From: Bacteroidales bacterium UBA1215 | GTDB taxonomy: Bacteria; Bacteroidota; Bacteroidia; Bacteroidales; WCHB1-69 | Assembly: GCA_002309475.1 (NCBI GenBank) | Contig: DBXJ01000034.1 | Coordinates: forward strand, 5,741 to 69,740 | DNA: 64,000 bases | Reading direction: 5' to 3' | Shown here: piece by piece, positions 5,779 through 36,036 of the stretch | Numbering within the stretch: the stretch's first letter is position 1 | Layout: each line of letters opens with the position of its first letter | The notes under the pieces: generated by a model | Database searches by the model: none | What the model saw: the letters and a program-made list of their open reading frames with translations, nothing else | Told to the model about the DNA's origin: nothing | Translations under genes and position numbers: made by a program

Positions 5779-6642
5779 TTATCTATTTTTCACCACTCTT
5801 ACACTATAGCCATTATAGCGGTTGTTGTCCTCTCTCATGGCATTGAGAGTATCATTGGCAAAATACAAAGATGTTGCAGAAAACTTGTCAACAGACGATA
5901 CCGACCAATAGTTTCCGCTAACATTTATATCTCGCGGACTGGAAATTAAACGGAAACCTGCCGCCGGCAAAAACACGGCGCCATTGGCTTCCATGGCTTT
6001 CCACTGTGCCTGCGAATAACTATTGGCAGAAAAATTACTTGCCATCGGCGAAAAAGAACAACCCGCCGGCAGCACCCACGCATCCGGCAACAATACCATG
6101 CCGGGGATTTGGCTGACATTGGCTCTGCCATATTTCTGGTCTGCCATGCTACGCGTATGAAACAAATAATTCCACTCTTCCTGTGTCAGCGTACGCCACA
6201 AGCCGGATGTAATGCCACCATTTTCTATGGCATTGTAAACACCCCAGTCGTAATTGGCATAGGCACCCACCAAAGACAGTCCGCTGATAGGCTGACCATA
6301 AATAGAATAGTTGATAGAAGTTTGATGCGGATTGCTATTGTTGTAGCCGGACGTTGCCCATCCGAACAAATCTATCCAACCGGAATTAGTAGAAGAAATA
6401 TTTCTATTATCTTGTCCGATTACGGAATATTGCTGAGCGGCAAATCTCCAAGACTTGGTAGATGCTTGATATTGCAAATTGCCTTGCGAAAAAACAACTC
6501 TTCTACCTTGTCCTACGGTAAAATCCTTGGCAATAAAATTATTATTGACATCGGCATCAACCTTGTCATCACCGTCACAAGAACTTAGACAAACTATTGC
6601 CAATATCAAAAACCATGATCTACTCAATATTTTTATCTTCAT
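5779..6642 (-). CDS. surface lipoprotein carrying one FISUMP/DUF1566-like (C-type-lectin-fold-like) module
   Basis: The signal ends LSSC followed by acidic DGDDKVD, resembling the Bacteroidota lipoprotein surface-export signal. The rest matches the ~265-aa module repeated in the giant genes: GNLQY..WRFA..QY..GWIDLFGW.TSGY..YDWGVYNAI..WRTLT.EEW.YL..VFLPAAG.R..YWS..G.SVRVV. Confidence 0.7.
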   Translation of the reverse strand: MKIKILSRSWFLILAIVCLSSCDGDDKVDADVNNNFIAKDFTVGQGRRVVFSQGNLQYQASTKSWRFAAQQYSVIGQDNRNISSTNSGWIDLFGWATSGYNNSNPHQTSINYSIYGQPISGLSLVGAYANYDWGVYNAIENGGITSGLWRTLTQEEWNYLFHTRSMADQKYGRANVSQIPGMVLLPDAWVLPAGCSFSPMASNFSANSYSQAQWKAMEANGAVFLPAAGFRLISSPRDINVSGNYWSVSSVDKFSATSLYFANDTLNAMREDNNRYNGYSVRVVKNR

Positions 6643-6643: not shown

Positions 6644-7828
6644 TTACAAATTTGCTAATAATTGTTCCAAACGCTTGTTTATCACGCTATAAGAATGATT
6701 TTCCTGAATATATTCTACTGCATTGGCAGACATTTGCCCACACAATGCTTCATCTTCAAAATAAGTTTTTACTGCTTGGGCAAATTGCTTGGCATTATCG
6801 GCAATGAACAAATGCTTTCCGGAACAAACATCCAAACCTTCCTTGCCGATAGTGGTTGTAATGACCGTCTTGCCCAATGACAAAGCTTCCACTATTTTGA
6901 TACGAATGCCGCTTCCCGACAGGAGAGGAACTACCAAAGCTCCATTTTCTTGCATAAACTGCTTGGCAGAAGGCACTTCTCCAACAATTTCTATATTAGG
7001 ATGCTTGATATTGTACCATTGATGAGGAATTTTTCTGCCGGCAATTTTTAATTGAATATTGGGGAATTGTGTACAAATCAACGGAAATATCTCATAGACA
7101 AACCAAAGCGTTCCTTCAATATTCGGCTGCCAGTCCATTGAACCCAGCATGAACAAATTCTTCTTTTCTTTTAATCCTTCAACTTTGGCAGGCAAATTGG
7201 TGGCAAATGGCAAAACCTCCACAGGGGCAAAAGAGGCAAAAAATTGTCGGTCGTACTGAGATATTGTCCAGACGGCATTGCATTTCTGTGCCATTTTTTG
7301 CTCAAAATTTTTCAGCTGTCTTGCCAAAATATGGATATAACATCTTTTGACAGGGTTTTTGGTATTTTCTCCCACCCGCTGCCAAATTTTATGCTCTACA
7401 TTGTGGGAACGAAGGACAATTTTTGCAGAACTATTTTTTCTGATAATATCGTAATAGACAGCCATATAGACTGTTTCTAAAATTACTATATCAAATTGTT
7501 GCCGCAAAATTTCTATCAACTTTTTTTCAAAGGTTTTACTATAAAAGCGCTTTACATGATAGGATTGATTTTTCAACAAGCACGCCAAAGCTCCTTTGAC
7601 AGAAAAATTCGTGTCAATGTCCACCCACTCTATTTGTGTGCGTTGCAGATAACCGGTATCTACGTTTTCTTTATCCACATGGTATTTTGGGGTGTTGACC
7701 GCCAAAATTTTCACCTGATGTCCCAACTGCAACAAAGATTCCGTGAGTGCATTCATAGCTATCGGTCCCCCTTCTTTGACGGGATATGGAGATTTATTGC
7801 ATATTTGTAGAATCTTCATGATGTACAC
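6644..7828 (-). CDS. glycosyltransferase family 4 (GT-B fold)
   Basis: N-terminal MKILQICNKSPYPVKEGG and a C-terminal GT1-type block ALVVPLLSGSGIRIKIVEALSLGKTVITT. The start is more likely the ATG at 7819 (MKILQ). Confidence 0.8.
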   Translation of the reverse strand: MYIMKILQICNKSPYPVKEGGPIAMNALTESLLQLGHQVKILAVNTPKYHVDKENVDTGYLQRTQIEWVDIDTNFSVKGALACLLKNQSYHVKRFYSKTFEKKLIEILRQQFDIVILETVYMAVYYDIIRKNSSAKIVLRSHNVEHKIWQRVGENTKNPVKRCYIHILARQLKNFEQKMAQKCNAVWTISQYDRQFFASFAPVEVLPFATNLPAKVEGLKEKKNLFMLGSMDWQPNIEGTLWFVYEIFPLICTQFPNIQLKIAGRKIPHQWYNIKHPNIEIVGEVPSAKQFMQENGALVVPLLSGSGIRIKIVEALSLGKTVITTTIGKEGLDVCSGKHLFIADNAKQFAQAVKTYFEDEALCGQMSANAVEYIQENHSYSVINKRLEQLLANL

Positions 7829-9263
7829 TCAATTTATGCAAAGGATTAATAGATGACAATTTATTGAAAAATTTCTTCAAAGCAGACATATCGGAAAGGC
7901 TTGCCTCACGCGATGCCATGACAATCAAAAATATTCCCATCGGCAACAACAAAACCGAAGAAATCCACATACCGATATATGGAGGAATGGTACCTGCTCG
8001 GGCCATTCGTTCACCGATGGTGGAGGTTACCCAATATAATACAAACACCAATATTGAAACCGTTAAAGGAATTCCCAAGCCGCCTTTTCGGATAATGGCA
8101 CCTAATGGCACACCTATAAAAAACAACAACAAACACGCCATTGACAAAGAGAATTTTCTGTGCCATTCTATCTCATAACGTGCCAACTGTCTTTCTTGTG
8201 ATTCACAATCCAGTGCACTAAACTCCAAATAACCGGAATTTTCTCTTGCCGCTTGAATGGCATAGGTATAGGCGGTATAAGTTTGCTGTGTATCTAAGGT
8301 ATCATCGGCTGCCTGCACTGCTGTCTGGCTACTATTTGCCAATTGTGGATTGTAATAATTGGAAATAGTTCGTACATTGTTGAGCAGATTGCTGCCTCGG
8401 GTAGATTCCACGGCAAAAATATCCGACTGCATGGTATCAATATAATTATCCAACTGAAAAATATTCAGCATTTGATAACTATCTTTATAGAATTCTTCAT
8501 CTGTCTTTTGCATTTGAAACGATGACAAGTCAAAACGAATTTGTTGTGTTTTGAAGGTGCCTCTCAATATCGGCATTTCTTTGGCAGTAAGCGAAGGATC
8601 GTAACTGGCATTTTCATCATAAATAAATCCGTCTTCAAGGGTGAAATACAAATATTGCTTGTTGGGCGACAAAGCCATAGTGCCTTTTTTACCGTATGTA
8701 ACAGTAGTATAACCGGTTGTTTTGGTATGATCGTAAACCAAAACATCGTGAATGGTACTATTGTCTTTGTCTTTTTTGCCGATTCGGATTATATAATTGT
8801 CAATTTCGCGATAGAAAATGCCTTCGTCAATACTCAAAGCCGGTTTTTGTGCTTGAATATCGTGCAATAAGGTAGTGAATTTCAAACTCATCACCGGCAC
8901 CACATTGTTAGAAAACACAAAAGCAAACACTGACAAACACAAAGCAAAAATTGTCAACGGTTGCATGATACGTGCCAAAGGAATACCTGCACACTTAAAA
9001 GCCGTCAACTCGTTGCGTTCGGAAAGGTTGCCGAAAGTAATTAATGACGACAACAAAATTGCCAATGGCAATGCCAATGGAACAAATGTGAAAGTACTAT
9101 AGAACAATAATTTTAACAAAACTCCCAATTCCAATCCCTTGCCGACCAAATCATCCACATACTTCCACAAGAATTGCATCATAAGTACAAATAAAACAAC
9201 TAAAAAAGTCAATATAAATGGACCTATATAGTTTTTCAACAAGAACTTATCTGCAACTTTCAT
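7794..9263 (-). CDS. LptF/LptG family (YjgP/YjgQ) LPS export permease
   Basis: MKVADKFLLKNYIGPFILTF N-terminus, three TM helices, a large periplasmic insert, then three TM helices; 489 aa. Confidence 0.8.
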   Translation of the reverse strand: MKVADKFLLKNYIGPFILTFLVVLFVLMMQFLWKYVDDLVGKGLELGVLLKLLFYSTFTFVPLALPLAILLSSLITFGNLSERNELTAFKCAGIPLARIMQPLTIFALCLSVFAFVFSNNVVPVMSLKFTTLLHDIQAQKPALSIDEGIFYREIDNYIIRIGKKDKDNSTIHDVLVYDHTKTTGYTTVTYGKKGTMALSPNKQYLYFTLEDGFIYDENASYDPSLTAKEMPILRGTFKTQQIRFDLSSFQMQKTDEEFYKDSYQMLNIFQLDNYIDTMQSDIFAVESTRGSNLLNNVRTISNYYNPQLANSSQTAVQAADDTLDTQQTYTAYTYAIQAARENSGYLEFSALDCESQERQLARYEIEWHRKFSLSMACLLLFFIGVPLGAIIRKGGLGIPLTVSILVFVLYWVTSTIGERMARAGTIPPYIGMWISSVLLLPMGIFLIVMASREASLSDMSALKKFFNKLSSINPLHKLSVHHEDSTNMQ

Positions 9264-18811: not shown

Positions 18812-19026
18812 ATTTATTTTTTTTGTATATTTGCTGCAAAATTATACTTTTTCATGGAAAAAATTTCAGTCAAAGATAATTTCTATAAAAAACTTGTATT
18901 CAATGGTTTATAAGTTGTATTTTTTATTTTATACCTGTTAAAGAGAAAAATTTTTAACAAAAAAATACGAAAAATACTTACAAAAATGCCATTTTATCTA
19001 CAAAATTGAATTAAAAAGAGACATAC

Positions 19027-19692: not shown

Positions 19693-19693
19693 C

Positions 19694-20638: not shown

Positions 20639-20657
20639 TGACCTATTGTCAGCATCA

Positions 20658-20689
20658 AATAGGCGGAACAAAGTTCCGCCTATTTTTTT
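20658..20689 (+). terminator. rho-independent terminator after trxB (overlaps the 3' end of the convergent gene)
   Basis: aataggcggaac pairs with gttccgcctatt (12-bp stem, 3-nt loop), followed by a T-run. Confidence 0.7.
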
Positions 20690-21255: not shown

Positions 21256-21312
21256 GTTATTTTTTTTACTTAATTTTCAATTTTTATCTTGGCAAAAGTA
21301 CTAAAAAAATAC

Positions 21313-21320
21313 TATCTTTG
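21313..21320 (+). promoter_or_regulatory. -7 promoter box for the S9 peptidase gene
   Basis: TATCTTTG lies inside the ORF-track extension (..KYYLCIL..), 19 nt upstream of the ATG at 21340. Confidence 0.5.
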
Positions 21321-21339
21321 CATTTTAAATTTAAAAAAT

Positions 21340-23370: not shown

Positions 23371-23375
23371 AAAAA

Positions 23376-23398
23376 AGAGGCGATTGCCTCTTTTTTTT
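23376..23398 (+). terminator. rho-independent terminator after the S9 peptidase gene
   Basis: gaggc pairs with gcctc (loop gatt), followed by T8. Confidence 0.65.
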
Positions 23399-23441
23399 AC
23401 ATACAAATCTTTTCTCCTTACACATCTCGACACCTCCTATT

Positions 23442-23462
23442 CCTGAAAAATCATGATTTTTC
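23442..23462. repeat. perfect 18-nt palindrome gaaaaatcatgatttttc within cctgaaaaatcatgatttttc
   Basis: Read directly. A related cctgaac..aaaaatcaaattgattttttc occurs at 33054..33086. Confidence 0.7.
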
Positions 23463-23521
23463 GGGATTTGTATTAATTAAATATGATAATAGAAGTGTTG
23501 ACGAAAAGAATAAAATAAGGT

Positions 23522-24208
23522 TCAGGACAACTTTAGAGTTTTTTTTCTAAAATTCTTTAATAGCAAATTGAATAAATTTTCATGTCGATGATTATATCTA
23601 AATTCACATTCTTTAATATGTAAAATAAAAGTTTGTTTATCAATTCCTCTAAATTTTGTTAATCTACTTTTACACAATCCCCAAAAATTCTCTATACCAT
23701 TTGTATGTATTTTCCCATTTCTTACAAACTCATTATTATTATGAATAACAGTTAAATGATTAGAAAAACCATTGCCAATTAAGTGACGATATGTAGTAAA
23801 TCCATCTGTATATATTGTTGAATTGTCAGAAATAACTTGTTTAATTAAAGGCAATAATGTAGAATGTTTACAATCTCTAACTACAAAGGTAGAAACATTA
23901 CTACCCCTCTTTAATATACCAAATACGATTGTTTTTTCTTTTGCTCCACGACCTCGTATTCCTCGTACTCTGCAAGCACCAAAATAACTTTCATCAAGTT
24001 CATATTCTCCATCTGAACAGATAGTCTCTTCATCGCATATTTCCTTTATTCGAATTCTAAAACAGTAGAATAATTTATTGATACTTTGGCGAGAAATGTG
24101 AGTTATTTCAGCTACTTTTTTAGCTTCTATATCTAAACAAAAACAACGTAAAATTTGTCTAAATGTGCGTTCATTAATATGAGCATGCTCTAAATACTTA
24201 TTTTTCAT
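23522..24208 (-). CDS. IS1595 family (ISXO2-like) DDE transposase
   Basis: N-terminal HTH-like ERTFRQILRCFCLDIEAKKVAEITHISRQSINKLF. The DDE region has ELDESYFG, IYTDGF, HTNGIENFW and ECEFRYNHR blocks typical of IS1595 transposases. Confidence 0.85.
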   Translation of the reverse strand: MKNKYLEHAHINERTFRQILRCFCLDIEAKKVAEITHISRQSINKLFYCFRIRIKEICDEETICSDGEYELDESYFGACRVRGIRGRGAKEKTIVFGILKRGSNVSTFVVRDCKHSTLLPLIKQVISDNSTIYTDGFTTYRHLIGNGFSNHLTVIHNNNEFVRNGKIHTNGIENFWGLCKSRLTKFRGIDKQTFILHIKECEFRYNHRHENLFNLLLKNFRKKTLKLS

Positions 24209-24368: not shown

Positions 24369-24854
24369 CTACTTACAACAAGAATAAATTATCGTTACCA
24401 CTATAGACGCAATGGATAGAACAATAGTAGTTCCTATACCATACACTGCTGCACGAAAAGCTGACCTATTTGCTGTATCAAACTGTTTCCACAAATAGCA
24501 AAAATTATTTGCTCGTTCAACTATAACCTTCTTTTTCTTTTGATTGTTTTGTGGGAATAGTTCCTTTTGGGTTCTATACCCCAAAGCGATTTCTTCACTG
24601 TTTATTCCATTGCAAGCACGACATTTACGATAAACAGGTTTGCCTTCCCCATCCTCTCGACTTATTTTTACTAAACCCTCCCAGTAATATTGAGGTCTAA
24701 TTTGTCTTTTTGTTTTTTTACATATAAGACTACCAAGGCTTTTACTATAAACCAATGCAAAATTTTCATAATCTATGGTTTTATCCATAAAATCTTGTGG
24801 AATATTTTCTACTTTAAATGTATTTATTTCTTCTTTATTATTATTTTTACACAT
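24369..24854 (-). CDS. hypothetical tail-anchored membrane protein
   Basis: 161-aa AT-rich ORF with a single C-terminal TM helix (AAVYGIGTTIVLSIASIVVTIIY). No family recognised. It lies 59 nt downstream of the 1659-aa gene on the same strand. Confidence 0.5.
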   Translation of the reverse strand: MCKNNNKEEINTFKVENIPQDFMDKTIDYENFALVYSKSLGSLICKKTKRQIRPQYYWEGLVKISREDGEGKPVYRKCRACNGINSEEIALGYRTQKELFPQNNQKKKKVIVERANNFCYLWKQFDTANRSAFRAAVYGIGTTIVLSIASIVVTIIYSCCK

Positions 24855-24913: not shown

Positions 24914-27900
24914 CTATTGATTTACATTTCGTACTAAACGAATAGAAAGACCAAAATAACGATTTAAGGTTATTGATGGATTAAGATCGTACGAACCAAA
25001 AGTCAAGTAATAAGCGTAATCGCTATTGTAACACGTAGATGACCAATAGTAACCACCTGGGCCGGCAGCATTAATAGAAACTCTTTTGCGATTACCCGCA
25101 GACGGCAAAAAAACACAACCCGCAGCATCCATCTTGGCCCAATCATTTACATTGATAATATTTGATGTATGCAACGCATTTTGTGTATTGGGATTATTTA
25201 ATAGATAAATAGATGTACTCCAATCATCAGGCACAATAATTAAACCTTCAACACCATTGATAGTGGCTTTTGCATAACGTATGCCTGAAATAGTACTACG
25301 CGTATTCAACAGATAAGCCCATTCATTTTGAGTCAATGTACGCCATGTACCCGGTGCATCAGTCGTATTCGTTTTAGGATTATAAATGGCATTATACACG
25401 CCCCAGTCATAATTAGTTCCTGAAATATTGATACTACCATTTCCATAATCCGAATAATTTGTACTTGTTGTATAAGGATATTTATTATTATATCCGCTGG
25501 TACCCCAACCAAATAAATCTATCCATCCGGAGTATGAAGAATCTATGTTGCTATTATTTGTACCAATAGTATCCCATTGTTGAGGAGCAAATCTCCATGT
25601 GCCTGCAGCAGTTCCATTACCTGCCACTACATGAGTGGTGGCAGTAGTTCCACCATTCTTGGCACTCCATTGCAGATTGCCGGGTGAAAATAACACCTTT
25701 TGTGTGGCAGAAACGGAAAATTGTGCATTACTTTGTGTTGCCGGAGTAGTAAATGTATCTTGGTTGCCGTAAGCTGTACCTGCAGCATTGGTTGCATAGG
25801 CTCGAACATAATAAGTTGTACCTGATTTTAATCTGGTGATATTACTTGTAAAACTACCAATACCACTGCTATCGGAAGTATGGTTGCTATTTATGGTAGG
25901 ATTGGGCAATGTATCCCAACAAATTCCTCGGGCTATTACCACGGCTCCACCATTAGACGTGATAATTCCTCCGCTAACTGCAGAACTATCGGTTATATTA
26001 CTTACCACTATGGTAGTAAGTATGGGAATTGTAATGTTTGCTTTTGTAGTAAACGTCACTTGATTGCCATATGTAATACCTGCAGCATTGGTTGCATAGG
26101 CTCGAACATAATAAGTAGTATTACTTGTTAAGCCGGTAAGATTGCTTGTAAAACTACCTGTATCTAATCCATTGTTTGTATGATTATCATTTATAGTAGG
26201 ATTTGGAGAGGTACTCCAACATATTCCACGAGTTGTAACCATAGAACCTCCATCTGAGATTATATTGCCTCCGCTAACTGCAGAACTATCTGTTATGTTA
26301 CTTGCTACTATAGTGTTAATTACAGGTAAATTTTGAACTAAATTGCTAACATCTTGAACAAGGCGAACAGAAAGACCAAGATCGGTATAATAACTGTACA
26401 AAGGATTTACACTGATCGAATCAAATTTCAATTCGTATGCGTATTTATTATTTATAATAGACATATTTGCAGACCAATAAAATCCGGTATAATTAACATG
26501 AAAGGTCGAAGTCCCACTACGGTCTCCTGCTGCAGGTAGGAAGACACAACCTGATCTTTCCATATATAACCAATCCAATCCTTTAATAGTATTAGAACTA
26601 TATGGTGCATTTAAAGTATTAGGCATACTAAATTTGTTAGATGAGAGATAACAAGTGTCAGGAACAATAATTAAACCTCTCACTCCATTCACCACAGCTT
26701 TTGCATAACGTATGCCGGATGAGGTTGTACGAGTATTCAACAAATAATTCCATTCATCTTTGGTCAAAGTTCGCCATGTCCCCGGAGCATCTGTATGATT
26801 GGTTTTAGAATTATAAATAGCATTATACACACCCCAATCATAATTAGTACCTGATATATCGTTACTCCCATTGCCATAATTCGAAATTGTACCACCATTA
26901 GGATTATTATTATTATATCCGCTTGATCCCCAATAAAATAAGTCTATCCATCCAGTATAAGAAGTATCTATTAACCTCCTATTATTGACACCAATGGTAT
27001 CCCACTGATTGGGGGCAAAACGCCATGTTCCGGTAGCAGTACCATTTCCTACTACTGCATGAGTAGTGGCAGTATTACCACCATTGGTGACACTCCACTG
27101 CAAATTGCCAGATGAAAATAACACCTTTTGTGTGTCAGTAACGGAAAATAGTAAATTAGGCGTTGGAAGAGTTATAAATTCAACTTGATTGCCGTATGCT
27201 GTACCGCCAGCATTGGTAGCGTATGCTCGAACATAATACTTGGTGTAGCCATATAAATTAGTAAGATAGCCTACAAAATTACCTGTATCACTACCATTAC
27301 TTGTATGATAATCATTAATAGTAGGATTAGGAGAAGTACTCCAACATATTCCACGAGTAGTTACCATAGCACCTCCATCTGAAGTTATATAACCTCCACA
27401 AACTGCAGAACTACCAGTTATATTACTGGCTATTATAGTGTTAACTACTGGTAAATTTCGTATTGGTTTGTTAATATCATGAACAAGGCGAACAGACAAA
27501 CCATATCTGCGCCACCTACTTCCCCAACCGACACTTTGATTGGAAAACCCAATATAACTCGCACCTGTTTCAGTAACGTTCCTAGCCGACCAGTATACAC
27601 CACTGGAACCGATATAGATGACCGAATCCCAACTATTACGCCTGCCGGCAGCTGGAAGAAAAACACAACCTGCAGAATCCAATTTCACCCAATCTAAAGC
27701 ATTAATCACGTTGGAAATAAATGTTGCACTTTTTATATTTGTACTATCCAATGCATATATAGAGTTACTCCAATTGTCAGGAACAATAATTAAACCATTC
27801 ACTCCATTCACCACAGCTTTAGCATAACGAATACCAGATAGAGTATTTCGTGTACTTAGCAAATACCCCCATTCATCCCCATATTCATCAACCCATCCTT

Positions 27901-29893
27901 TTAAGGTACGCCATGTACCTGGAGCATTTGTAGTTTGTGTTTTGGAATTATAAATAGCATTATACACGCCCCAATCATAATTGGTATTTGAAATACTACT
28001 ACTTCCATTACCATAAAGTGTATCTATAGGAATAGCCATATAAGGATATTTATTATTATACCCACTGGTGCCCCAGCCAAACAAATCTATCCATCCGGTA
28101 TAGGTAGAATAAATGTTCATGTTATCGGCACCAATTGTATCCCACTGATTAGGAGCAAAACGCCATGTGCCTGCCGCCGTTAGATTGTCTGCTATTGTAT
28201 GAGTAGTGAGAGTATCTCCTCCATTAGTGGGACTCCATTGAAGATTTCCGGGTGAAAAATACACATATTTACCATTACCAACGGAAAATGATTTATCTAA
28301 CACTGCGATAAAACTAATTTGATTTCCATATGCCGTATCAAAGGCGTTGATAGCATAAGCACGAACATAATATATCTTACCTAATTCAAGTCCTACTAAA
28401 TGGCTAGTAAAACTTCCAATCCCTGACCCATCAATAGTGTGATTATCATTAATAGTTGGATATTGTGAAGTACTCCAGCACACACCTCGTGCTGTAACCA
28501 TAGTTCCTCCATCTGAACTTATCTTACCTCCGCAAATAGCAGAATTTTCAGTTACATTACTTACATCTATGGTAGTAAGTATCGGAATTGTAGTATTTGC
28601 AGTAAACGACACTTGGTTGCCGTATGCTGTTCCAGCAGCATTGGTAGCGTAAGCTCGAACATAATAAGTAGTATTCTTTGTTAAGCCGGTAAGATTGCTT
28701 GTAAAACTACCCGTACCGGAACCATTAGTCGTGTGATTATCATTAATAGTTGGATTTTGTGAAGTACTCCAGCACACACCTCGTGCTGTAACTTGTGCGC
28801 CTCCATCGGATGTGATATTTCCTCCGCTTGTTGCTGAACTATCCGTTATATTGCTTGCCGTAAAGGTATTTATTGTTGGTAATGTTGCCGGTATTGCCGT
28901 AACAAAGACTATCTCATTACCAAAGGCCGTTCCTACACTATTGGTAGCATACGCTCGAACATAATACGTAGTATTACCAGTTAAGTTGGTAATATTACTT
29001 GTAAAATTACCTATACCACTGCCATCTGTTGTGTGATTCCCGTTGATAGTAGGATTATGAGACGTACCCCAACATACTCCTCGTGCTGTTACTTGTGAGC
29101 CTCCATCAGATGTGATATTGCCTCCACTAACAACAGATGTTTCGGTTATATTGCTTGCCGTAATAGTACTTAGTTTTGGTAAAGTAGTTGGTTGTGTAGC
29201 ATTGAATTTTAAACTAAATGTTTGTGTATTGCCTTGTGCTTGCGTAATACGTTGGCTTTCTTCCATATTACCATTAATAGTAGCATATCCTACATATTCC
29301 ATCATATCTCCATAGCTAAATGGTTGCGAGGATTGCCGTTTTTGAATTTTGGAGGTTTGTTCCTCTGAAAGCGGCAAGGTACTTCTAAACTTTATATAAT
29401 TATCCCCGGAATGCCCTACATTAACGAGTTTTTGTACCATACGCCCTTCTAAGGTGTTTACCACCAAGAAATAAACTTGTGGTTTCTGGAAACCTATGTC
29501 AAAATGATTGATTCCGGCTTCTAATTGCGAACTAAACTCCATCACTCGCTGACCGGTTATATTATACACAGCCATATACACTTCCTCACTTTGTGGTATC
29601 GTAAGCAATACCGAACTTGTACCATTGAAAGGATTGGGATACGAAAAAAGCCCTATTCCCTGTTCTTGAACATCGGAAATGCCTGTTTTATTGGTAAGTG
29701 TGAGTACCGTATCCGGCCAATAAATTGTTTCTTGCCAACTTTTGGTTAAATTAGTAACAACCACTTTGTTGAGTTGTACATATCTATTGGTTGCATCTCT
29801 ACCTGTAAAAGTAAGTGACACTGTCTGTGCTGATACAGTTGCTATGCTACATAAACAACCTAAAATAAATGTCAAAAAATTTATCTTTTTCAT
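24914..29893 (-). CDS. giant modular secreted/surface protein: N-terminal T9SS-sorting-domain-like module, 6 Fn3/Ig-like repeats, 3 FISUMP/DUF1566-like lectin-fold modules
   Basis: 1659 aa. Domain map in aa: signal 1-22 (VSA-Q; alternative lipobox ILGC at 10-13); beta domain 23-78; CTD-like 81-160; linker 161-236; ~95-aa repeats at 238-333, 338-432, 436-531, 814-908, 1189-1283 and 1289-1383; ~265-aa lectin-like modules at 535-805, 914-1181 and 1391-1656. Confidence 0.85.
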   Translation of the reverse strand: MKKINFLTFILGCLCSIATVSAQTVSLTFTGRDATNRYVQLNKVVVTNLTKSWQETIYWPDTVLTLTNKTGISDVQEQGIGLFSYPNPFNGTSSVLLTIPQSEEVYMAVYNITGQRVMEFSSQLEAGINHFDIGFQKPQVYFLVVNTLEGRMVQKLVNVGHSGDNYIKFRSTLPLSEEQTSKIQKRQSSQPFSYGDMMEYVGYATINGNMEESQRITQAQGNTQTFSLKFNATQPTTLPKLSTITASNITETSVVSGGNITSDGGSQVTARGVCWGTSHNPTINGNHTTDGSGIGNFTSNITNLTGNTTYYVRAYATNSVGTAFGNEIVFVTAIPATLPTINTFTASNITDSSATSGGNITSDGGAQVTARGVCWSTSQNPTINDNHTTNGSGTGSFTSNLTGLTKNTTYYVRAYATNAAGTAYGNQVSFTANTTIPILTTIDVSNVTENSAICGGKISSDGGTMVTARGVCWSTSQYPTINDNHTIDGSGIGSFTSHLVGLELGKIYYVRAYAINAFDTAYGNQISFIAVLDKSFSVGNGKYVYFSPGNLQWSPTNGGDTLTTHTIADNLTAAGTWRFAPNQWDTIGADNMNIYSTYTGWIDLFGWGTSGYNNKYPYMAIPIDTLYGNGSSSISNTNYDWGVYNAIYNSKTQTTNAPGTWRTLKGWVDEYGDEWGYLLSTRNTLSGIRYAKAVVNGVNGLIIVPDNWSNSIYALDSTNIKSATFISNVINALDWVKLDSAGCVFLPAAGRRNSWDSVIYIGSSGVYWSARNVTETGASYIGFSNQSVGWGSRWRRYGLSVRLVHDINKPIRNLPVVNTIIASNITGSSAVCGGYITSDGGAMVTTRGICWSTSPNPTINDYHTSNGSDTGNFVGYLTNLYGYTKYYVRAYATNAGGTAYGNQVEFITLPTPNLLFSVTDTQKVLFSSGNLQWSVTNGGNTATTHAVVGNGTATGTWRFAPNQWDTIGVNNRRLIDTSYTGWIDLFYWGSSGYNNNNPNGGTISNYGNGSNDISGTNYDWGVYNAIYNSKTNHTDAPGTWRTLTKDEWNYLLNTRTTSSGIRYAKAVVNGVRGLIIVPDTCYLSSNKFSMPNTLNAPYSSNTIKGLDWLYMERSGCVFLPAAGDRSGTSTFHVNYTGFYWSANMSIINNKYAYELKFDSISVNPLYSYYTDLGLSVRLVQDVSNLVQNLPVINTIVASNITDSSAVSGGNIISDGGSMVTTRGICWSTSPNPTINDNHTNNGLDTGSFTSNLTGLTSNTTYYVRAYATNAAGITYGNQVTFTTKANITIPILTTIVVSNITDSSAVSGGIITSNGGAVVIARGICWDTLPNPTINSNHTSDSSGIGSFTSNITRLKSGTTYYVRAYATNAAGTAYGNQDTFTTPATQSNAQFSVSATQKVLFSPGNLQWSAKNGGTTATTHVVAGNGTAAGTWRFAPQQWDTIGTNNSNIDSSYSGWIDLFGWGTSGYNNKYPYTTSTNYSDYGNGSINISGTNYDWGVYNAIYNPKTNTTDAPGTWRTLTQNEWAYLLNTRSTISGIRYAKATINGVEGLIIVPDDWSTSIYLLNNPNTQNALHTSNIINVNDWAKMDAAGCVFLPSAGNRKRVSINAAGPGGYYWSSTCYNSDYAYYLTFGSYDLNPSITLNRYFGLSIRLVRNVNQ

Positions 29894-29898
29894 ATCTT
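29232..29898 (-). repeat. 667-bp near-identical 5' module, copy 1 (pairs with 32217..32883)
   Basis: Constant offset of 2985 nt with no indels and roughly 40 substitutions by eye. The encoded residues 1-221 differ at 9 positions. Confidence 0.85.
29414..29653 (-). other. T9SS type-A sorting-domain-like segment (aa 81-160) in an N-terminal position
   Basis: LFSYPNPFNGTSSVLLTIPQSEEVYMAVYNITGQRVMEFSSQLEAGINHFDIGFQKPQVYFLVVNTLEGRMVQKLVNVG. Confidence 0.65.
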
Positions 29899-29944
29899 TT
29901 ACCTAAAATTCAATGTTATAGTATTTATTAGAAACCTTTATTTT

Positions 29945-32878
29945 TTATTGCACATTCTTCACAAGACGGACAGAGTGACCAATGTAGCAATCCACAATAA
30001 CCGATGGATTTAAAGAATACCTAGAAATAGATAAATAATAAGCCTCACCGCTTGTGAAATTTGTAGTTGACCAATAGTAGGCAGAAAAAAAGACATCATA
30101 AACTGAAGTTCCAATACGATAGCCGGTAGAAGGCAGAAAGACACAACCCGCATTCTCCATTGTTGTCCAATCTGCATTACTAATAATATTAGATGCATAA
30201 GTCGCACTTGGTGTATTAGTACTATCCAATGCATGGATAGAGGTACTCCAATTGTCAGGAACAATAATTAAACCACCTTTTCCCCATACTGTAGCTTTCG
30301 CATAACGTAATCCGGATAAAGTAGTACGAGTATTCAACAAATACGTCCATTCATCTTTGGTTAATGTACGCCATGTGCCCGGAGCATCAGTGGTATTGGT
30401 TTTAGGATTATAAATAGCATTATACACTCCCCAATCATAATTAGTACCTGCAATATTGTTATTGCCATTTCCATAATCTGTTCCTGTAATACTAGTCATA
30501 TATGGATATTTATTATTATATCCGCTGGTACCCCAACCAAACAAGTCTATCCATCCGGTATCGGTGGAAGATATGCTACTATTGGTAGATCCTATTTTAT
30601 CCCATTGATTAGGGGCAAAACGCCATGTTCCGGCTGCAGTACCATTGCCTGCTACTATATGAGTGGTGGCAGTATTGCCTCCATTGGTGGCACTCCATTG
30701 TAAGTTGCCGGGAGAAAATAAAACCTTTTGTGTGGCAGAAACTGAAAATTGTGTATCAGACTTCACTCCTGTAGTAGAAAACGTCACTTGATTGCCGTAA
30801 GCTGTACCTGCTGCATTGGTAGCATAGGCTCGAACATAATAAGTAGTATTACTTGTTAAGCCCGTAAGATTGCTTGTAAAACTTCCAGCACCGGAACCAT
30901 TAGTTGTGTGATTAGTATTGATAGTAGGATTAGGAGAGGTACTCCAACATACTCCCCGAACTACAACCGAAGAACCTCCATTTGAAGTGATATTGCCACC
31001 ACTTACGGCTGTACTATCGGTTATATTGCTCACTCTTATAGTATTGACTATAGGCAATATGGCAACATTCCGAACAAGGCGGACAGAAAGACCGTAGCAG
31101 TGGTTGCGGTCCCACGAGGGACCTAGACCGCTCGAATCGAAGGACAAAACGTACGCGTGACCTCTATCGTAGTACGTAGCCGACCAGTAGGTGCCGTCAT
31201 CAACGACATATTTGACCGAAGTCCCAATACGGTTGCCGGCAGCAGGCAGGAAGACACAACCTACATTTTCCATTTTAGCCCAGTCAGTTGCACCAATAAT
31301 ATTGGATGTATATGCCGCACTTGCTGTATTCACGTTTGTTAATGGATAATAAGTATTACTACAATTATCCGGAACAATGATTAAACCCACAATTCCACAT
31401 ACTGTAGCTTTAGCATATCGTATGCTAGATAAGGTAGGACGAGTATTTAACAAATAAACCAATTCGTCTTTTGTCAATGTACGCCAAGTACCTGGTGCAT
31501 CGGTGGTACTAGTTTTAGGATTATAAATAGCATTATAAACGCCCCAATCATAATAAGTGCCTGAAATATTGTTGCTCCCATTGCCATAATCTCTGTATGA
31601 GGTACTTGTCATATACGGAAATTTTTGATTATATCCGCTGGTGCCCCAACCAAACAAGTCTATCCAACCGGTATAGGTAGAGGAAATATTTCCATTGTTT
31701 GCCCCGATGGTATCCCATTGGTGTGGAGCAAAACGCCATGTACCTGCAGCAGTGCCATTGCCTGCCACTATATGGGTGGTAGCGGTATTGCCCCCATTGG
31801 TGGCACTCCATTGCAAATTTCCGGGAGAAAATATTACAGAATCGGTAGCACTAACAGAAAATACGGGAGAATTAATTTTTGCATCTGTGGTAAATGTAAC
31901 TTGGTTACCATACGCTGTACCAGCAGAATTGGTAGCGTATGCACGTAAGTAATAGGTTGTTCCTGCTGTAAGTCCGGTCATATTACTTGTAAAACTGCCT
32001 GTATCTAAACCATCGGTTGTATGATTATTGCTAATGGTGGGATTAGACGTTGTATCCCAACAAATACCGCGGGCTGTTACCGAAGATCCTCCATCGGATG
32101 TAATATGGCCTCCACTAACTGCCGATGTGGTAGTAATATTACTGGCTGTGAATGTATTTAATGTTGGTAATATTGCCTTTGTTACATCAAATTGTAAAAT
32201 AAATGTTTGTGATGTTCCTTGTGCCTGCGTAATACGTTGGCTTTCTTCCATATTACCATTAATAGTAGCATATCCCATATATTCCATCATATCTCCATAA
32301 CTAAATGGTTGCGAGGATTGCCGTTTTTGAATTTTGGAGGTTTGTTCCTCTGAAAGCGGCAAGGTACTTCTAAACTTTATATAATTATCCCCGGAATGCC
32401 CTACATTAACGAGTCTTTGTACCATACGCCCTTCTAAGGTGTTTACCACCAAGAAATAAACTTGTGGTTTCTGGAAACCTATGTCAAAATGATTGATCCC
32501 GGCTTCTAATTGCGAACTAAACTCCATTACTCGCTGACCTGTAATATTATACACAGCCATATACACTTCCTCACTTTGTGGTATCGTAAGCAATACCGAA
32601 CTTGTACCATTGAAAGGATTGGGATATGAAAAAAGACCTATCTCCTGTTCTTGAACATCGGAAATACCTGTTTTATTGGTAAGTGTGAGTACTGTATCCG
32701 GCCAGTAAATTGTTTCTTGCCAACTTTTGGTTAAATTGGTAATTGTTATGCTATCCAATTGCACATAATTATTGGTAGCATCTCTACCTGTAAATGTAAG
32801 TGATACTGTCTGTGCTGATACAGTTGCTATACTGCATAAACAACCTAAAATAAATGTTAAAAAATTTATCTTTTTCAT
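29945..32878 (-). CDS. giant modular secreted/surface protein, paralog: same N-terminal module, 2 Fn3/Ig-like repeats, 2 lectin-fold modules
   Basis: 977 aa. Domain map in aa: signal 1-22; CTD-like 81-160; repeats 237-331 and 608-702; lectin-like modules 339-604 and 710-975. Only 51 nt separate it from the downstream 1659-aa gene. Confidence 0.85.
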   Translation of the reverse strand: MKKINFLTFILGCLCSIATVSAQTVSLTFTGRDATNNYVQLDSITITNLTKSWQETIYWPDTVLTLTNKTGISDVQEQEIGLFSYPNPFNGTSSVLLTIPQSEEVYMAVYNITGQRVMEFSSQLEAGINHFDIGFQKPQVYFLVVNTLEGRMVQRLVNVGHSGDNYIKFRSTLPLSEEQTSKIQKRQSSQPFSYGDMMEYMGYATINGNMEESQRITQAQGTSQTFILQFDVTKAILPTLNTFTASNITTTSAVSGGHITSDGGSSVTARGICWDTTSNPTISNNHTTDGLDTGSFTSNMTGLTAGTTYYLRAYATNSAGTAYGNQVTFTTDAKINSPVFSVSATDSVIFSPGNLQWSATNGGNTATTHIVAGNGTAAGTWRFAPHQWDTIGANNGNISSTYTGWIDLFGWGTSGYNQKFPYMTSTSYRDYGNGSNNISGTYYDWGVYNAIYNPKTSTTDAPGTWRTLTKDELVYLLNTRPTLSSIRYAKATVCGIVGLIIVPDNCSNTYYPLTNVNTASAAYTSNIIGATDWAKMENVGCVFLPAAGNRIGTSVKYVVDDGTYWSATYYDRGHAYVLSFDSSGLGPSWDRNHCYGLSVRLVRNVAILPIVNTIRVSNITDSTAVSGGNITSNGGSSVVVRGVCWSTSPNPTINTNHTTNGSGAGSFTSNLTGLTSNTTYYVRAYATNAAGTAYGNQVTFSTTGVKSDTQFSVSATQKVLFSPGNLQWSATNGGNTATTHIVAGNGTAAGTWRFAPNQWDKIGSTNSSISSTDTGWIDLFGWGTSGYNNKYPYMTSITGTDYGNGNNNIAGTNYDWGVYNAIYNPKTNTTDAPGTWRTLTKDEWTYLLNTRTTLSGLRYAKATVWGKGGLIIVPDNWSTSIHALDSTNTPSATYASNIISNADWTTMENAGCVFLPSTGYRIGTSVYDVFFSAYYWSTTNFTSGEAYYLSISRYSLNPSVIVDCYIGHSVRLVKNVQ

Positions 32879-32883
32879 ATCTT
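32217..32883 (-). repeat. 667-bp near-identical 5' module, copy 2
   Basis: See 29232..29898. Confidence 0.85.
32399..32638 (-). other. T9SS type-A sorting-domain-like segment (aa 81-160) in an N-terminal position, second copy
   Basis: Same sequence as copy 1 except K155R. Confidence 0.65.
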
Positions 32884-32976
32884 ATAATGTTTATTCTATC
32901 AATACAATAACTAAAAATTTTATTTTTTTGTTAAATTTTTAAAATTCTCATTTTCAGCATTATATCTTCTCAAAAA

Positions 32977-32999
32977 TCTAAAGTTATTCTATACCAAAT
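32977..32999. repeat. degenerate solo copy of the IS1595 right end
   Basis: tctaaagttattctataccaaat versus tctaaagttgtcctgaaccaaat (24325..24347): 19/23 identical, same orientation. Confidence 0.5.
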
Positions 33000-33016
33000 A
33001 TAATACTATAAAAGTG

Positions 33017-33024
33017 CAAAGATA
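33017..33024 (-). promoter_or_regulatory. -7 promoter box for the giant-gene operon
   Basis: caaagata is the revcomp of TATCTTTG. It is the only such box upstream of 32878 and leaves a ~135-nt leader. No box is present in the 51-nt gap before the second gene. Confidence 0.45.
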
Positions 33025-33078
33025 GCATTTTTTCTTCATTTTATAAACTCTAACCTGAACTTTTTAAAAATCAAATTG

Positions 33079-33140
33079 ATTTTTTCTTAAAAAATTATTT
33101 TCTAATTCAAATTTTTGTTGTACTTTTGCAAGCTGAAAAT
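33079..33140 (+). repeat. cassette spacer copy C (promoter module upstream of abiEi)
   Basis: 33104..33140 is 34/37 identical to 34501..34537. The spacing from the attttctt-like start to the -7 box is 42 nt in both copies. Confidence 0.7.
33121..33128 (+). promoter_or_regulatory. -7 promoter box for the abiE operon
   Basis: TACTTTTG lies 40 nt upstream of the ATG at 33169. Confidence 0.55.
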
Positions 33141-33165
33141 ACAAAATTTTTGTATATACAGCTTG
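33129..33165. promoter_or_regulatory. nested palindrome between promoter and abiEi start (candidate AbiEi operator)
   Basis: Outer arms caagctg/cagcttg (33129-35 and 33159-65). Inner palindrome atacaaaa-t-ttttgtat at 33139..33155. Confidence 0.45.
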
Positions 33166-33168
33166 CTT

Positions 33169-33729
33169 ATGAATATTTTGAATATCCTATTATCCAGTTC
33201 ACGGACGGTGTTTACCCCTCAATGGTTAGCCATGACATGTGAAGAAAAAGAACGGCAGTCATTACGACGTTCTCTTATTTACTATGCCAAAAAAGGAGCC
33301 CTGCTAAATCCGCGAAAGGGCATTTATACCAAACCGGCATACAATGAACAAGAAATGGCTTGTGCATTGCTAAAACCGTCTTATATCTCTCTTGAGTACG
33401 TGTTGGCACGTGCCGGTGTAACGTTTCAATACAGTTCGGATATTACCTGCATCAGCTACCAAAACCGCATTATCGAAGTGGATAAACGTTCCTATGTATT
33501 CCGGCAAATCAATCCCAAAATATGGATGAACATGGCGGGCATTGAACAGCACGACAATATTGCCATTGCCACACCGGAGCGAGCTTTTCTGGATATGCTC
33601 TACCTCAGTAGCGGACAATGCTATTTCGACAATCTGCATCCCTTAAAAAAGAATCTTATCCGACAAATTTTGCCGGTTTACAATTCTCCGACATTAACCA
33701 AACGCGTAGAAATGCTTTTAAATCAATAA
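33169..33729 (+). CDS. type IV toxin-antitoxin system AbiEi-family antitoxin (transcriptional regulator)
   Basis: N-terminal wHTH-like ..SRTVFTPQWLAMTCEEKERQSLRRSLIYYAKKGALLNPRKGIYTKP.. resembles the AbiEi_4 pattern. Sits 3 nt upstream of an AbiEii gene. Start corrected from 33115, which reads through the promoter. Confidence 0.7.
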   Translation: MNILNILLSSSRTVFTPQWLAMTCEEKERQSLRRSLIYYAKKGALLNPRKGIYTKPAYNEQEMACALLKPSYISLEYVLARAGVTFQYSSDITCISYQNRIIEVDKRSYVFRQINPKIWMNMAGIEQHDNIAIATPERAFLDMLYLSSGQCYFDNLHPLKKNLIRQILPVYNSPTLTKRVEMLLNQ

Positions 33730-33732
33730 ACT

Positions 33733-34425
33733 ATGGATATCAACAAACACCGCTATTACTTGACACAATTACTGCTGGCGATATTTCGTCATCCTGAATT
33801 ATGCAAACTGCTGGCATTCAAAGGAGGCACCTCGCTAATGCTCTTCCATGGCTTGACGCGATTTTCTACCGATTTGGATTTTACCTTGTTAGATGCTACA
33901 AAATCAAAATATGTATATAAAGAATTACATCGTTTGCTGCTGAAATTCGGCACTATTGACGATGAAGCTATGAAATTTTATGGTCTGATTCTGGTGCTCA
34001 ACTACGGCAAGGACGAACGGATGTTGAAAGTGGAAGTCAGCAATCGCGAATATCCCAACCACTATGAAATTCGCTCACTACTCGGCACGGATATTCGTGT
34101 TATGACACTACCGGACATGTTTGCACATAAACTATGTGCATTAGGCGAACGAATTACTCCACGCGACATCTACGATGTATGGTTTTTCTTGCAAAAACGC
34201 ACAGCGATTAACGAAGAGATTGTCCGCATGCGTACCAATATGTCCGTCAGCGAGTATGCACAACAATGTGCAAAAAAAGTGCGAGAATATAGTTCCCGAA
34301 TACTGATGCAAGGAATCGGAGATGTTCTCATGGACAATCAATCCAAGAATTTCGCCCGCAAGCAACTTATCCCCGAAACCGCCTCCGCATTGGAACTATT
34401 CGCCACATATCCTTTACTGGCTTAA
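33733..34425 (+). CDS. AbiEii/AbiGii-family nucleotidyltransferase toxin
   Basis: KGGTSLMLFHGLTRFSTDLDF is the nucleotidyltransferase hG[GS]x9-13DxD motif in the DUF1814/AbiEii context; 230 aa. Confidence 0.8.
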   Translation: MDINKHRYYLTQLLLAIFRHPELCKLLAFKGGTSLMLFHGLTRFSTDLDFTLLDATKSKYVYKELHRLLLKFGTIDDEAMKFYGLILVLNYGKDERMLKVEVSNREYPNHYEIRSLLGTDIRVMTLPDMFAHKLCALGERITPRDIYDVWFFLQKRTAINEEIVRMRTNMSVSEYAQQCAKKVREYSSRILMQGIGDVLMDNQSKNFARKQLIPETASALELFATYPLLA

Positions 34426-34517
34426 CATTTTTCGCGACATTACCTCCAAGAGCATTTCAAATGTAATTTATTTGCATTTTCTTGCCCTAAATCTTTGTTT
34501 ATTTCAAAATTTTGTTG

Positions 34518-34525
34518 TACTTTTG
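34518..34525 (+). promoter_or_regulatory. -7 promoter box for the ATPase gene
   Basis: TACTTTTG within the shared module ttttgttgtacttttgcaag. Confidence 0.55.
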
Positions 34526-34537
34526 CAAGTTGAAAAT

Positions 34538-34568
34538 CGTAACACACATTACGGTAATACGTGTTACG
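34538..34568. promoter_or_regulatory. 31-nt imperfect palindrome in the ATPase leader
   Basis: cgtaacac-ac-attac-g-gtaat-ac-gtgttacg, with 8-bp outer and 5-bp inner arms. Confidence 0.6.
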
Positions 34569-34590
34569 TTTATAAAAATTCAAAGAAAAA

Positions 34591-35910
34591 ATGAAATTCT
34601 ATAATCGTGAAAAGGAGTTGCAGTTATTGCATGAAATTGAGGTTACATCGTGTGAACATTCGCAGATGACAGTATTGGTAGGACGGAGACGTATCGGGAA
34701 AACCAAACTACTACTGAAAGCCATTGAAGGCAAACCGTCTGTATATTTATTTGCCTCACGCAAAAGTGAAAGTATCCTTTGCCAACAATTTGTTGAAGAA
34801 GTGGAGCGATCGTTGAATATGCCTATTGGCCGGTACACGCGTATTGCCGCTCTCTTGGAACATTTGATGCGTATCTCAAAATATACTCCTTTCACGTTGA
34901 TTATAGATGAATTTCAAGAATTGGAGAAAATAGATTCCTCTATCATTGGCGACATACAACGGGTTTGGGACCTAAACAAAGACGAAAGCCGGATAAATTT
35001 ATTACTCAGCGGCAGTGTCTATTCCATGATGAAGCATATCTTTGAGGATGCAAAAGAACCGCTATTCTCTCGCGCAAGCCATATTATAAATTTAAAGGCT
35101 TTCAGCACCGACACACTGAAAACAATTCTTGCAGATTTCAATCCCCACTACACACAAGAAGACTTGCTTGCTCTTTACATGTTCACAGGTGGTGTAGCTT
35201 GGTATGTAGAACTGCTGATGACGGCCAAAGCATGGACGTGGAAAAAGATGATAGAGGTGATTTTTCAAGAACAGTCACTATTTATCAATGAAGGAAAAAA
35301 TCTGCTAATTGAGGAAATAGGAAAAGAATACAGCATCTATTTCTCCATATTGGAGTGCATTTCGCGAGGAATAAACACCCGGGGAGATATAGAAAATGCA
35401 ACAGGGGTGAAGGAAATCGGCGGCTACCTTAGCAAATTAGAGAAAGACTTCGGTATTATTGCTCAGTTGCGTCCGATATTTAGCAAACCGGCTTCCAAAA
35501 CCGTCAAATATACTATCTCTGATAACTTCTTGACGATTTGGTTCCGATTTTTCTACAAATACATGAATTATGTAGAATCCGATAACTTTACACTACTGAG
35601 AAAGATGGTCAAGAGAGACTATCAGACTTGTTCCGGTATTATGTTGGAGCGATATTTCCGTCAACAAGCTAAAGAATCCGGCAAATACACAGATATCGGA
35701 CAATTCTGGGACAAGAAAGGACAACACGAAATTGACATAATCCTTGTTAATGAGCAAGAACAACTTCTTCGTATAGGAGAAATCAAACGCCAAGCAAAAA
35801 ACATTGATTTCTACGCCTTACAAAATAAAATAGATCATTTCTTGTCTCTACACCCCCAACTTCAGCAATATACAAAAGAAATTCTTACATTATCAATGAA
35901 AGATATGTAA
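34591..35910 (+). CDS. AAA-type ATP-binding protein (Arch_ATPase + DUF234-like architecture)
   Basis: MKFYNREKELQLL start, Walker A GRRRIGKTKLL and Walker B LIIDEFQE. The 439-aa length and layout are typical of the PF01637/DUF234 ATP-binding proteins common in Bacteroidales. Confidence 0.8.
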   Translation: MKFYNREKELQLLHEIEVTSCEHSQMTVLVGRRRIGKTKLLLKAIEGKPSVYLFASRKSESILCQQFVEEVERSLNMPIGRYTRIAALLEHLMRISKYTPFTLIIDEFQELEKIDSSIIGDIQRVWDLNKDESRINLLLSGSVYSMMKHIFEDAKEPLFSRASHIINLKAFSTDTLKTILADFNPHYTQEDLLALYMFTGGVAWYVELLMTAKAWTWKKMIEVIFQEQSLFINEGKNLLIEEIGKEYSIYFSILECISRGINTRGDIENATGVKEIGGYLSKLEKDFGIIAQLRPIFSKPASKTVKYTISDNFLTIWFRFFYKYMNYVESDNFTLLRKMVKRDYQTCSGIMLERYFRQQAKESGKYTDIGQFWDKKGQHEIDIILVNEQEQLLRIGEIKRQAKNIDFYALQNKIDHFLSLHPQLQQYTKEILTLSMKDM

Positions 35911-36036
35911 TTTATTTGCATTTTTCTAACATAAATCCTTTCTTATCATCTGTTTGTGTGGTACTTATAAATTCAAAATCGTAACATACATTACGGTAAT
36001 ATATGTTACGTTTGCTAAAAAGAACATAGCAAAATG
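35905..36036 (+). repeat. cassette spacer copy B (downstream of ATPase gene; decayed promoter, no gene behind it)
   Basis: Same 20-nt start (overlapping the ATPase last codon and stop, atg taa). The -7 box has decayed to tacttata and the palindrome is conserved. It ends at an ATG (36034) opening only a 23-codon ORF. Confidence 0.7.
35980..36010. repeat. second copy of the 31-nt palindrome with compensatory arm change
   Basis: cgtaacata-c-attac-g-gtaat-a-tatgttacg. The arm pair c/g of copy A is replaced by t/a, so symmetry is preserved. Confidence 0.6.

Follow-up and report, generated by a model that had tools for sequence, protein, structure and literature searches.

A tandem gene pair from a gut Bacteroidales bacterium represents a very large, unnamed, FISUMP-related family of modular proteins

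What do two adjacent giant genes built from alternating repeats encode, and is their architecture peculiar to the genome that carries them? The genes, here called A and B, lie on the minus strand of a 64,000-nucleotide stretch of DNA from an uncultured herbivore-gut Bacteroidales bacterium (UBA1215; contig DBXJ01000034.1, positions 5,741 to 69,740), referred to throughout as the window. The tandem pair is unexceptional: it belongs to a very large family, unnamed and related to FISUMP (Fibrobacter succinogenes major paralogous domain), and its architecture is not special to this genome. As to function, we lean towards A and B being multivalent secreted or surface lectin-type adhesins.

Gene A (29945..32878, minus strand) encodes 977 residues and gene B (24914..29893, minus strand) 1659 residues; the intergenic gap (29894..29944) is 51 nt long. 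From the open reading frames (ORFs) and a module parse, with borders set by anchor motifs and a MAFFT alignment, A consists of a signal peptide (SP) and the modules N-F-L-F-L, and B of an SP and N-FFF-L-F-L-FF-L. All of the following coordinates are on the minus strand. In A, the N-cassette (residues 23-235; 32174..32812), a split beta-sandwich with a nested Por_Secre_tail-like domain, is followed by the Fn3-like module F1 (236-333; 31880..32173), the FISUMP-related, lectin-like module L1 (340-605; 31064..31861), F2 (607-704; 30767..31060) and L2 (711-977; 29948..30748), the sequence used for structure modeling. In B, the N-cassette (23-236; 29186..29827), 93% identical to that of A, precedes F1-F3 (237-334, 337-434 and 435-532, together 237-532; 28298..29185), L1 (536-805; 27479..28288), F4 (813-910; 27164..27457), L2 (916-1180; 26354..27148), F5-F6 (1188-1285 and 1288-1385, together 1188-1385; 25739..26332) and L3 (1392-1659; 24917..25720).

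Module F (~98 aa) is thus present in two copies in A and six in B, with pairwise identities of 54-79%, and module L (~265 aa) in two and three copies, with pairwise identities of 59-70%. In the alignment, A L1, A L2 and B L3 span 340-603, 711-974 and 1392-1655, slightly less than the borders listed above. At the DNA level, self-blastn finds repeats within A/B of 69-75% identity over 0.9-2 kb (E 1e-131 to 0, far beyond chance), and the strongest A-B matches cover complete F+L units; the duplication unit is therefore ~1.1 kb. We take A and B to be paralogues, each a modular protein exported through the Sec pathway. The pair had been described before, in a first-pass annotation made from the letters of the window: two neighboring same-strand ORFs of 977 and 1659 aa with a 51-nt gap devoid of a promoter box, two repeat types in the copy numbers and order given above, consensus strings for both, and growth by internal duplication. 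The observation stands in full, the copy numbers being recovered from anchor motifs and the MAFFT alignment, the order from the module parse, the consensus strings from the alignments and the duplication of F+L units from DNA; the interpretation stands in part, and a 235-aa N-terminal module shared by both proteins was overlooked.

This third module comprises residues 1-235 of A and B (93% identity), and the homology of the two genes starts just 8 nt upstream of each ATG (self-blastn). In both proteins, it consists of a signal peptide ending in VSA, cleaved before Q, and an all-beta region. The Q at +1 is nearly invariant across the cassette family and fits the signal-peptidase-I substrate pattern of Bacteroidetes. 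Nested within the cassette is a domain that resembles the C-terminal domain (CTD) of type IX secretion system (T9SS) type-A cargo, at residues 85-157 of 977 in A (32408..32626) and 85-157 of 1659 in B (29423-29641), i.e., N-terminal rather than C-terminal. It matches TIGR04183 in NCBIfam at 32.2 (A) and 31.4 (B) bits against a cutoff of 23, and PF18962 (Por_Secre_tail) in Pfam at 27.2 (A) and 29.6 (B) bits against a cutoff of 27. No sorting domain is found at the extreme C-terminus of either protein; both end in an L module.

With the cassette as query, 40 proteins were retrieved, mostly small. In two of them, P0160 and P0176, the CTD-like segment is missing and both cassette flanks are contiguous; because the flanks join without the segment, the CTD-like domain is an insertion inside another beta-sandwich. 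The AlphaFold model of the cassette is all-beta, with a predicted local distance difference test (pLDDT) score of 74, and in it strands at 2-45 and 144-208 flank a well-predicted domain at 59-136; compared with the PDB by Foldseek, the model retrieves generic Ig-like sandwiches only. In other proteins, the cassette precedes F modules, L modules or bona fide FISUMP domains (PF09603) and is therefore a recurrent "handle" for such heads. The NCBI name 'T9SS type A sorting domain-containing protein', carried by some family members, rests on the nested N-terminal domain. That this domain is a working internal, N-proximal sorting or anchoring signal, used for T9SS handling or as a surface tether, we consider improbable; if it were, the Fn3/lectin array would project outward from the N-terminus. 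We know of no T9SS cargo with an internal N-proximal CTD, the signal of these proteins being C-terminal; for T9SS biology, the nested domain is a minor oddity, though one that can be put to the test.

Module L has escaped the family databases. It has no Pfam match (for PF09603, none at E<=0.1 in A and B and none at E<=10 in the six modules), no NCBIfam match at threshold and no PDB relative by sequence; FISUMP itself likewise has none in the PDB. The earlier remark that no named family covers the whole module is thus borne out for Pfam. The scores for TIGR02145, the NCBIfam model of FISUMP, all fall below its cutoff of 41.65 bits: 24.1 for A, 36.9 for B, 21.7 for lipoprotein C, a sixth copy of L described below, and 19.3 for a single module. 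Sub-threshold TIGR02145 matches occur in 18 of 49 relatives (best E 3.2e-6, 27.9 bits; every score displayed is below 41.65). Profile-profile comparison by hhalign against a purpose-built alignment of true FISUMP domains is more telling: L residues 123-266 align with the C-terminal half of FISUMP at 95.1% probability (E 3.4e-8), a second run gives 93.2%, and E-values across runs range from 3e-7 to 3e-8, while the controls, a reversed profile and module F, yield 0.2-0.9%. Between the N-terminal halves of L and FISUMP, the alignment is not significant (E 0.52, probability 0.1%). Module L is therefore a divergent, enlarged FISUMP relative. The parallel to FISUMP and DUF1566 that had been drawn from the order of conserved blocks accordingly holds for the C-terminal ~145 residues but is not significant for the N-terminal ~120.

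For DUF1566 (Lcl_C, PF07603; threshold 34.9 bits), no protein of the window, A, B and C included, has a match; homologues match below threshold (P0299, 28.6 bits; P0107, 17 bits), the L module of one homologue at E 1.9e-6. PF26707 (DUF8237) has weak precomputed matches to a minority of module-L and true FISUMP proteins, namely P0006, P0109, P0198, P0238 and the segment 3001-3840 of locus L082.

An AlphaFold2 model of A L2, built with a 49-sequence alignment, is predicted with high confidence (pLDDT 95; predicted template-modeling score 0.92). A Foldseek search of the PDB with this model gives nothing at E<1; third in rank, and non-significant, comes Bdellovibrio Bd2740 (8OKS) with its C-type-lectin tip. 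Foldseek against viral models places two FISUMP-annotated phage proteins on top (E 1e-3 and 2.4e-3), and DUF1566 proteins appear further down the list. The profile searches and structure prediction proposed in the first-pass annotation as a check on this module thus returned the FISUMP link and no characterized enzyme family in Pfam, NCBIfam or the PDB.

The N-terminal ~120 residues of L are conserved, aromatic-rich and family-specific, and the strongest motifs of the module (FSxGNLQ, WRFA, GWIDLFGWGTSGYN and YDWGVYN) sit in this subdomain; W, Y and F make up 14-15% of L. Among the 49 relatives, the N-terminal half is strongly conserved (block entropy 0.5-1.5), whereas the block of residues 211-255 is hypervariable (entropy 2.1-2.8), with only 5% of its columns invariant among the five in-gene copies. 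The last ~50 residues of the FISUMP/DUF1566-type C-terminal subdomain vary greatly from copy to copy. L has none of the canonical Ca2+/sugar motifs EPN, QPD and WND and no conserved disulfides: L copies hold 1-4 Cys, and one of these, the C of GCVFLP, is conserved in the five in-gene copies and replaced by Ala in lipoprotein C. Bacterial C-type-lectin-like (CLec-like) domains, e.g., the CTD of the Legionella protein Lcl, likewise lack the motifs and disulfides of animal C-type-lectin-like domains (PMC11162425).

Module F is fairly described, on its profile matches, as an Fn3-like beta-sandwich spacer. Its whole-protein score for fn3 (PF00041) is 42.8 in B and 24.0 in A against a cutoff of 25, with no single stretch passing alone, and the whole-protein score for the Ig-like Pfam family NAR2 is above cutoff in B. 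Every F copy aligns to positions ~31-139 of NF049889, the NCBIfam model of the arabinanase BT0360 (E 6e-59 for B), and the matched part is the model's non-catalytic N-terminal domain. The nearest PDB sequences are Fn3 domains of Tie2 and titin, at marginal E-values of 0.04-0.5. The beta-sandwich assignment made in advance for this repeat agrees with the fn3 and NAR2 scores of B and with the NF049889 N-domain match.

How common are such proteins? An exhaustive HMMER search over 1.84 billion representatives, clustered at 50% identity, finds 12,974 clusters with module L at E<=1e-3 and 4,503 at E<=1e-30. One protein reaches 20 L copies (7313 aa) and another has 12 (4151 aa). When the top 149 representatives are parsed with profiles for N, F and L, the N-cassette is found in 21 and F in 64 of them, and the grammar of A and B is common: P0325 is NFLFL, identical to A, P0305 is NFFFLFLFL and P0341 is N-F8-LFLFL; P0298 and P0300 are longer series of (FL)x8 and (FL)x7. 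Most single-module L proteins are lipoproteins, many of them with an InlB-B-repeat (Flg_new_2) domain, and the nearest 120 family members include at least 60 with a lipobox. The closest relatives of the L modules of A (P0005, P0002 and P0027; 70-72% identical) carry a signal peptide, a Bdellovibrio MAT_N-like domain (E 2.4e-11, 43.7 bits, below the cutoff of 60), a coiled coil and one C-terminal L, a layout that is also that of fibers with exchangeable binding tips.

A scan of species-representative genomes confirms 593 loci. All 78 of the loci inspected belong to metagenome-assembled genomes of Bacteroidales or Paludibacteraceae, one of them labeled Prevotella, from rumen, reticulum, or horse or deer gut, and several loci per genome are common among them. 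Clustering of the ORFs of these 78 loci reveals no conserved neighboring gene family. The sole recurrent cluster (25 members in 16 loci), considered as a conserved operon partner, was rejected: it probably consists of spurious antisense ORFs, the longest of which overlaps an L gene. Long antisense ORFs over L coding sequence are also seen in the window (31625-31948, plus strand) and at loci L004-L081; they are most likely spurious and reflect biased repeat composition.

The window holds a sixth L copy in gene C (5779..6642, minus strand), which encodes a 287-aa single-module lipoprotein with L at residues 41-284. It is 42-44% identical to the in-gene copies (tblastn E 1e-41 to 1e-49), as the first-pass annotation had recognized. 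Its lipobox, LSSC, is followed by the acidic run DGDDKVDAD, and such runs resemble the surface-export signals of Bacteroidota lipoproteins. Gene C adjoins genes for a GT4 glycosyltransferase (6644..7828) and an LptF/G permease (7794..9263) and, unlike A and B, falls into a 41-member cluster at 90% identity.

The locus of A and B is variable between strains. On a related metagenomic scaffold, L001, the flanks are 98.7% identical (window 32181-34578 and 17899-23466 versus L001 8300-10698 and 15309-20888), and the same place is occupied by one N-L-F-L gene, split by a frameshift into 295-aa and 607-aa ORFs that overlap at ~10827-10888 of L001; after it come two unrelated ORFs, of 359 and 101 aa, and an AAA/DUF4143 gene. 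In the window, the interval from the AbiE pair to the S9 peptidase holds A and B together with a 161-aa ORF and an IS1595 transposase, and this interval is a strain-variable hotspot. Among 15 billion sequences, the A and B proteins occur on one contig only. Given this and the different arrangement of L001, the modules at this locus change in number and order over within-species times.

Upstream of A lies a candidate Bacteroidetes-type promoter (32990..33031, minus strand), a motif match with the TAnnTTTG box typical of the -7 region in Bacteroidetes at 33024 and 33002. Such boxes are missing both from the A-B gap and from the stretch that separates B from the 161-aa ORF, and no terminator-like hairpin follows A or B; these features suggest that A and B are probably co-transcribed as one transcription unit. 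A sigma-70 promoter scan (30 sites versus 38 expected) is uninformative for this phylum. The orphan 161-aa ORF (24369..24854, minus strand) directly downstream of B lacks its own TAnnTTTG box and may share the transcript of the pair, and its hydrophobic C-terminal 27 residues suggest a tail anchor.

Further downstream of B is the IS1595/ISXO2-like transposase (23522..24208, minus strand; Pfam E 5e-24), and accessory genes near the locus include the AbiEi/AbiEii pair (33115..34425) and an ATPase_2/DUF234 gene (34591..35910). The broader flanks hold housekeeping genes, namely those for an S9 peptidase, UPF0227 and RNase R; DNA polymerase I and LptF/G are more distant. A phage or plasmid origin was rejected on these flanks, on the lack of a PHROG match and on the lack of a plasmid match for the housekeeping stretch 38698-42279, 6 kb downstream. 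The ATPase_2/DUF234 gene (segment 34579-35904) is absent from L001; it is bracketed by two diverged ~117-bp intergenic copies of an element (~34462-34578 and ~35905-36021) that contains the palindrome CGTAACAC...GTGTTACG, and L001 has one copy of this element.

How might A and B work? If they are adhesins, as we are inclined to think, the L modules would be the binding heads, each joining a conserved, aromatic-rich N-subdomain to a FISUMP/DUF1566-type (C-type-lectin-like) C-subdomain, the F modules would be rigid spacers between the heads, and the N-cassette would be a beta-sandwich with a T9SS-CTD-like sandwich inserted in one loop. The conserved half of each head could be the scaffold or form a site common to all heads, with specificity perhaps tuned by the variable patch at the C-terminus; several heads per chain would confer avidity and possibly a range of specificities. 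Likely ligands would be glycans on plant fiber, host mucus or other microbes. Duplication and recombination of ~1.1-kb F+L units expand and contract the genes, so that strains differ in copy number.

Several observations weigh against this proposal. A and B have neither a lipobox nor a C-terminal T9SS CTD and hence no evident outer-membrane route. The canonical Ca2+/sugar motifs are missing from L, Foldseek finds no significant structural match of L to a lectin, and no conserved neighbor gene among the 78 loci points to a pathway. The most conserved half of L has no known relative; thus, the functional site may be there and need not be a lectin site.

The GNLQ, WRFA, GWIDLFGWGTSGYN and YDWGVYN motifs of this conserved half, with their invariant acidic and aromatic residues, are the best conserved in the module and could form the active site of a glycan- or cell-wall-active or FGE-like enzyme, making A and B multi-catalytic. 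The CLec/FGE fold can be catalytic (PMC11661182), and module F resembles the N-terminal domain of a model for a GH43 (glycoside hydrolase family 43) arabinanase; yet this match is limited to the non-catalytic N-terminal domain (31-139), L has no similarity to enzyme families in Pfam, NCBIfam or the PDB, and arrays of up to 20 copies are typical of binding, not catalytic, modules. An enzymatic L is distinctly unlikely on this evidence. Under a less remote, still unlikely explanation, the two proteins would serve as variable surface or decoy antigens, their role being to differ between strains, in escape from phage, protozoa or host immunity, and not to bind a defined ligand. The module number at the locus differs completely between strains with 98.7% identical flanks, the surroundings include mobile or defense genes (the IS1595 transposase and the AbiE pair), the C-terminal part of L is hypervariable, and paralogues are many per genome. 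The same variation is compatible with binding, however, and the two roles commonly coexist; the strong conservation of the N-half of L argues for a conserved molecular function, and no phase-variation switch, be it an invertible promoter or a diversity-generating retroelement (DGR), is seen in the window.

DGR targeting of the L modules would in itself explain the variable C-terminal segment: FISUMP and DUF1566 domains have been reported as DGR targets (PMC11661182), and the variable block sits where DGR variable regions lie in CLec folds. It is scarcely credible here, as divergence is spread over whole modules and the 64-kb window has neither a template-repeat-like copy nor an ORF with the reverse-transcriptase motif YxDD. 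We likewise regard it as very improbable that the tandem pair is an artifact in which strain alleles were misjoined or repeats expanded or collapsed. The occurrence of A and B on a single contig among 15 billion sequences, the lack of an entry for B in the gene-position index, the ~93% identity of the ~700-nt N-cassettes, which could confuse an assembler, and the single, frameshifted gene of the related strain are what such an error might leave behind. Against it, the ORFs run uninterrupted for 2.9 and 5.0 kb, the sequence at the A-B junction is unique, and NFLFL and NFFFLFLFL are also found in independent assemblies; the internal repeats, at 70-75% DNA identity, are old copies that have diverged much too far for an assembler to collapse them, which makes repeat collapse or expansion implausible and led us to rule it out.

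Lectin-type adhesins remain our preferred reading of A and B. What gives the locus its value is the family, with its size and confident model, along with the CTD-like domain nested near the N-terminus, rather than the gene pair itself. Module L is one of the larger protein families without a name or a solved structure; it has dozens of paralogues per genome and is concentrated in uncultured Bacteroidales and Paludibacteraceae of the rumen and hindgut. If L is a glycan-binding head, it would represent a new carbohydrate-binding module family, relevant to attachment to plant fiber, mucus or neighbor cells. For binding assays, a concrete starting point is given by the confident model and by the difference between the conserved N-half of L and its hypervariable C-terminal patch.

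Four known systems help to place A and B. With T9SS type-A cargo (PF18962/TIGR04183) they share a domain above both curated thresholds; by contrast to that cargo, the domain is N-proximal, nested in a beta-sandwich and followed by 820 to 1500 residues, and relatives exist in which it is missing and the flanks are contiguous. Bdellovibrio mosaic adhesive trimer (MAT) fibers carry ligand-binding tip domains, one of which (Bd2740, 8OKS) has a C-type-lectin fold (PMC10769870). MAT and phage receptor-binding fibers follow the same logic of a conserved N-terminal part with exchangeable heads, and close L relatives sit at the C-terminal tip of MAT_N-like coiled-coil proteins, but A and B have no MAT_N, coiled coil, beta-helix or PHROG match and repeat their heads along the chain.

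In Lcl, the collagen-like adhesin of Legionella, DUF1566 forms a C-type-lectin-like trimer and binds glycosaminoglycans (PMC11162425). It shares with L the motif order WR-x-(P/L)T-xxE(W/L) ... YWS ... VR-x-V, whereas Lcl has one trimeric head, its CTD, borne by a collagen stalk, and the L heads form a tandem array. DGR targets are known whose variable regions lie within FISUMP or DUF1566 domains (PMC11661182).

FISUMP (TIGR02145/PF09603) is the closest counterpart. Module L is larger (~265 aa versus the 176-position TIGR02145 profile), scores below the cutoff (19-37 versus 41.65 bits) with no PF09603 match, has a ~40-residue insertion between two helices, and in its N-half shows no significant match to that of FISUMP, with its signature D-x-DGN-x-Y-x-TV-x-IG-x-Q-x-WM-x-ENL; YG-x-LYNW. 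In the C-half, the signature of FISUMP (a GW-x-P-S/T-xxEW helix, LPAGG, FWS and G-SVRCV) has its homologue in L: the C-terminal ~145 residues align block for block through PGxW-x-x-(T/S)-xxEW, (F/A)LPA(A/G)G, (Y/F)WS and G-SVR-x-V. Both families are massively paralogous, associated with fiber-degrading guts and often borne on lipoproteins, and in other proteins an N-cassette of the A/B type is fused to true FISUMP domains.

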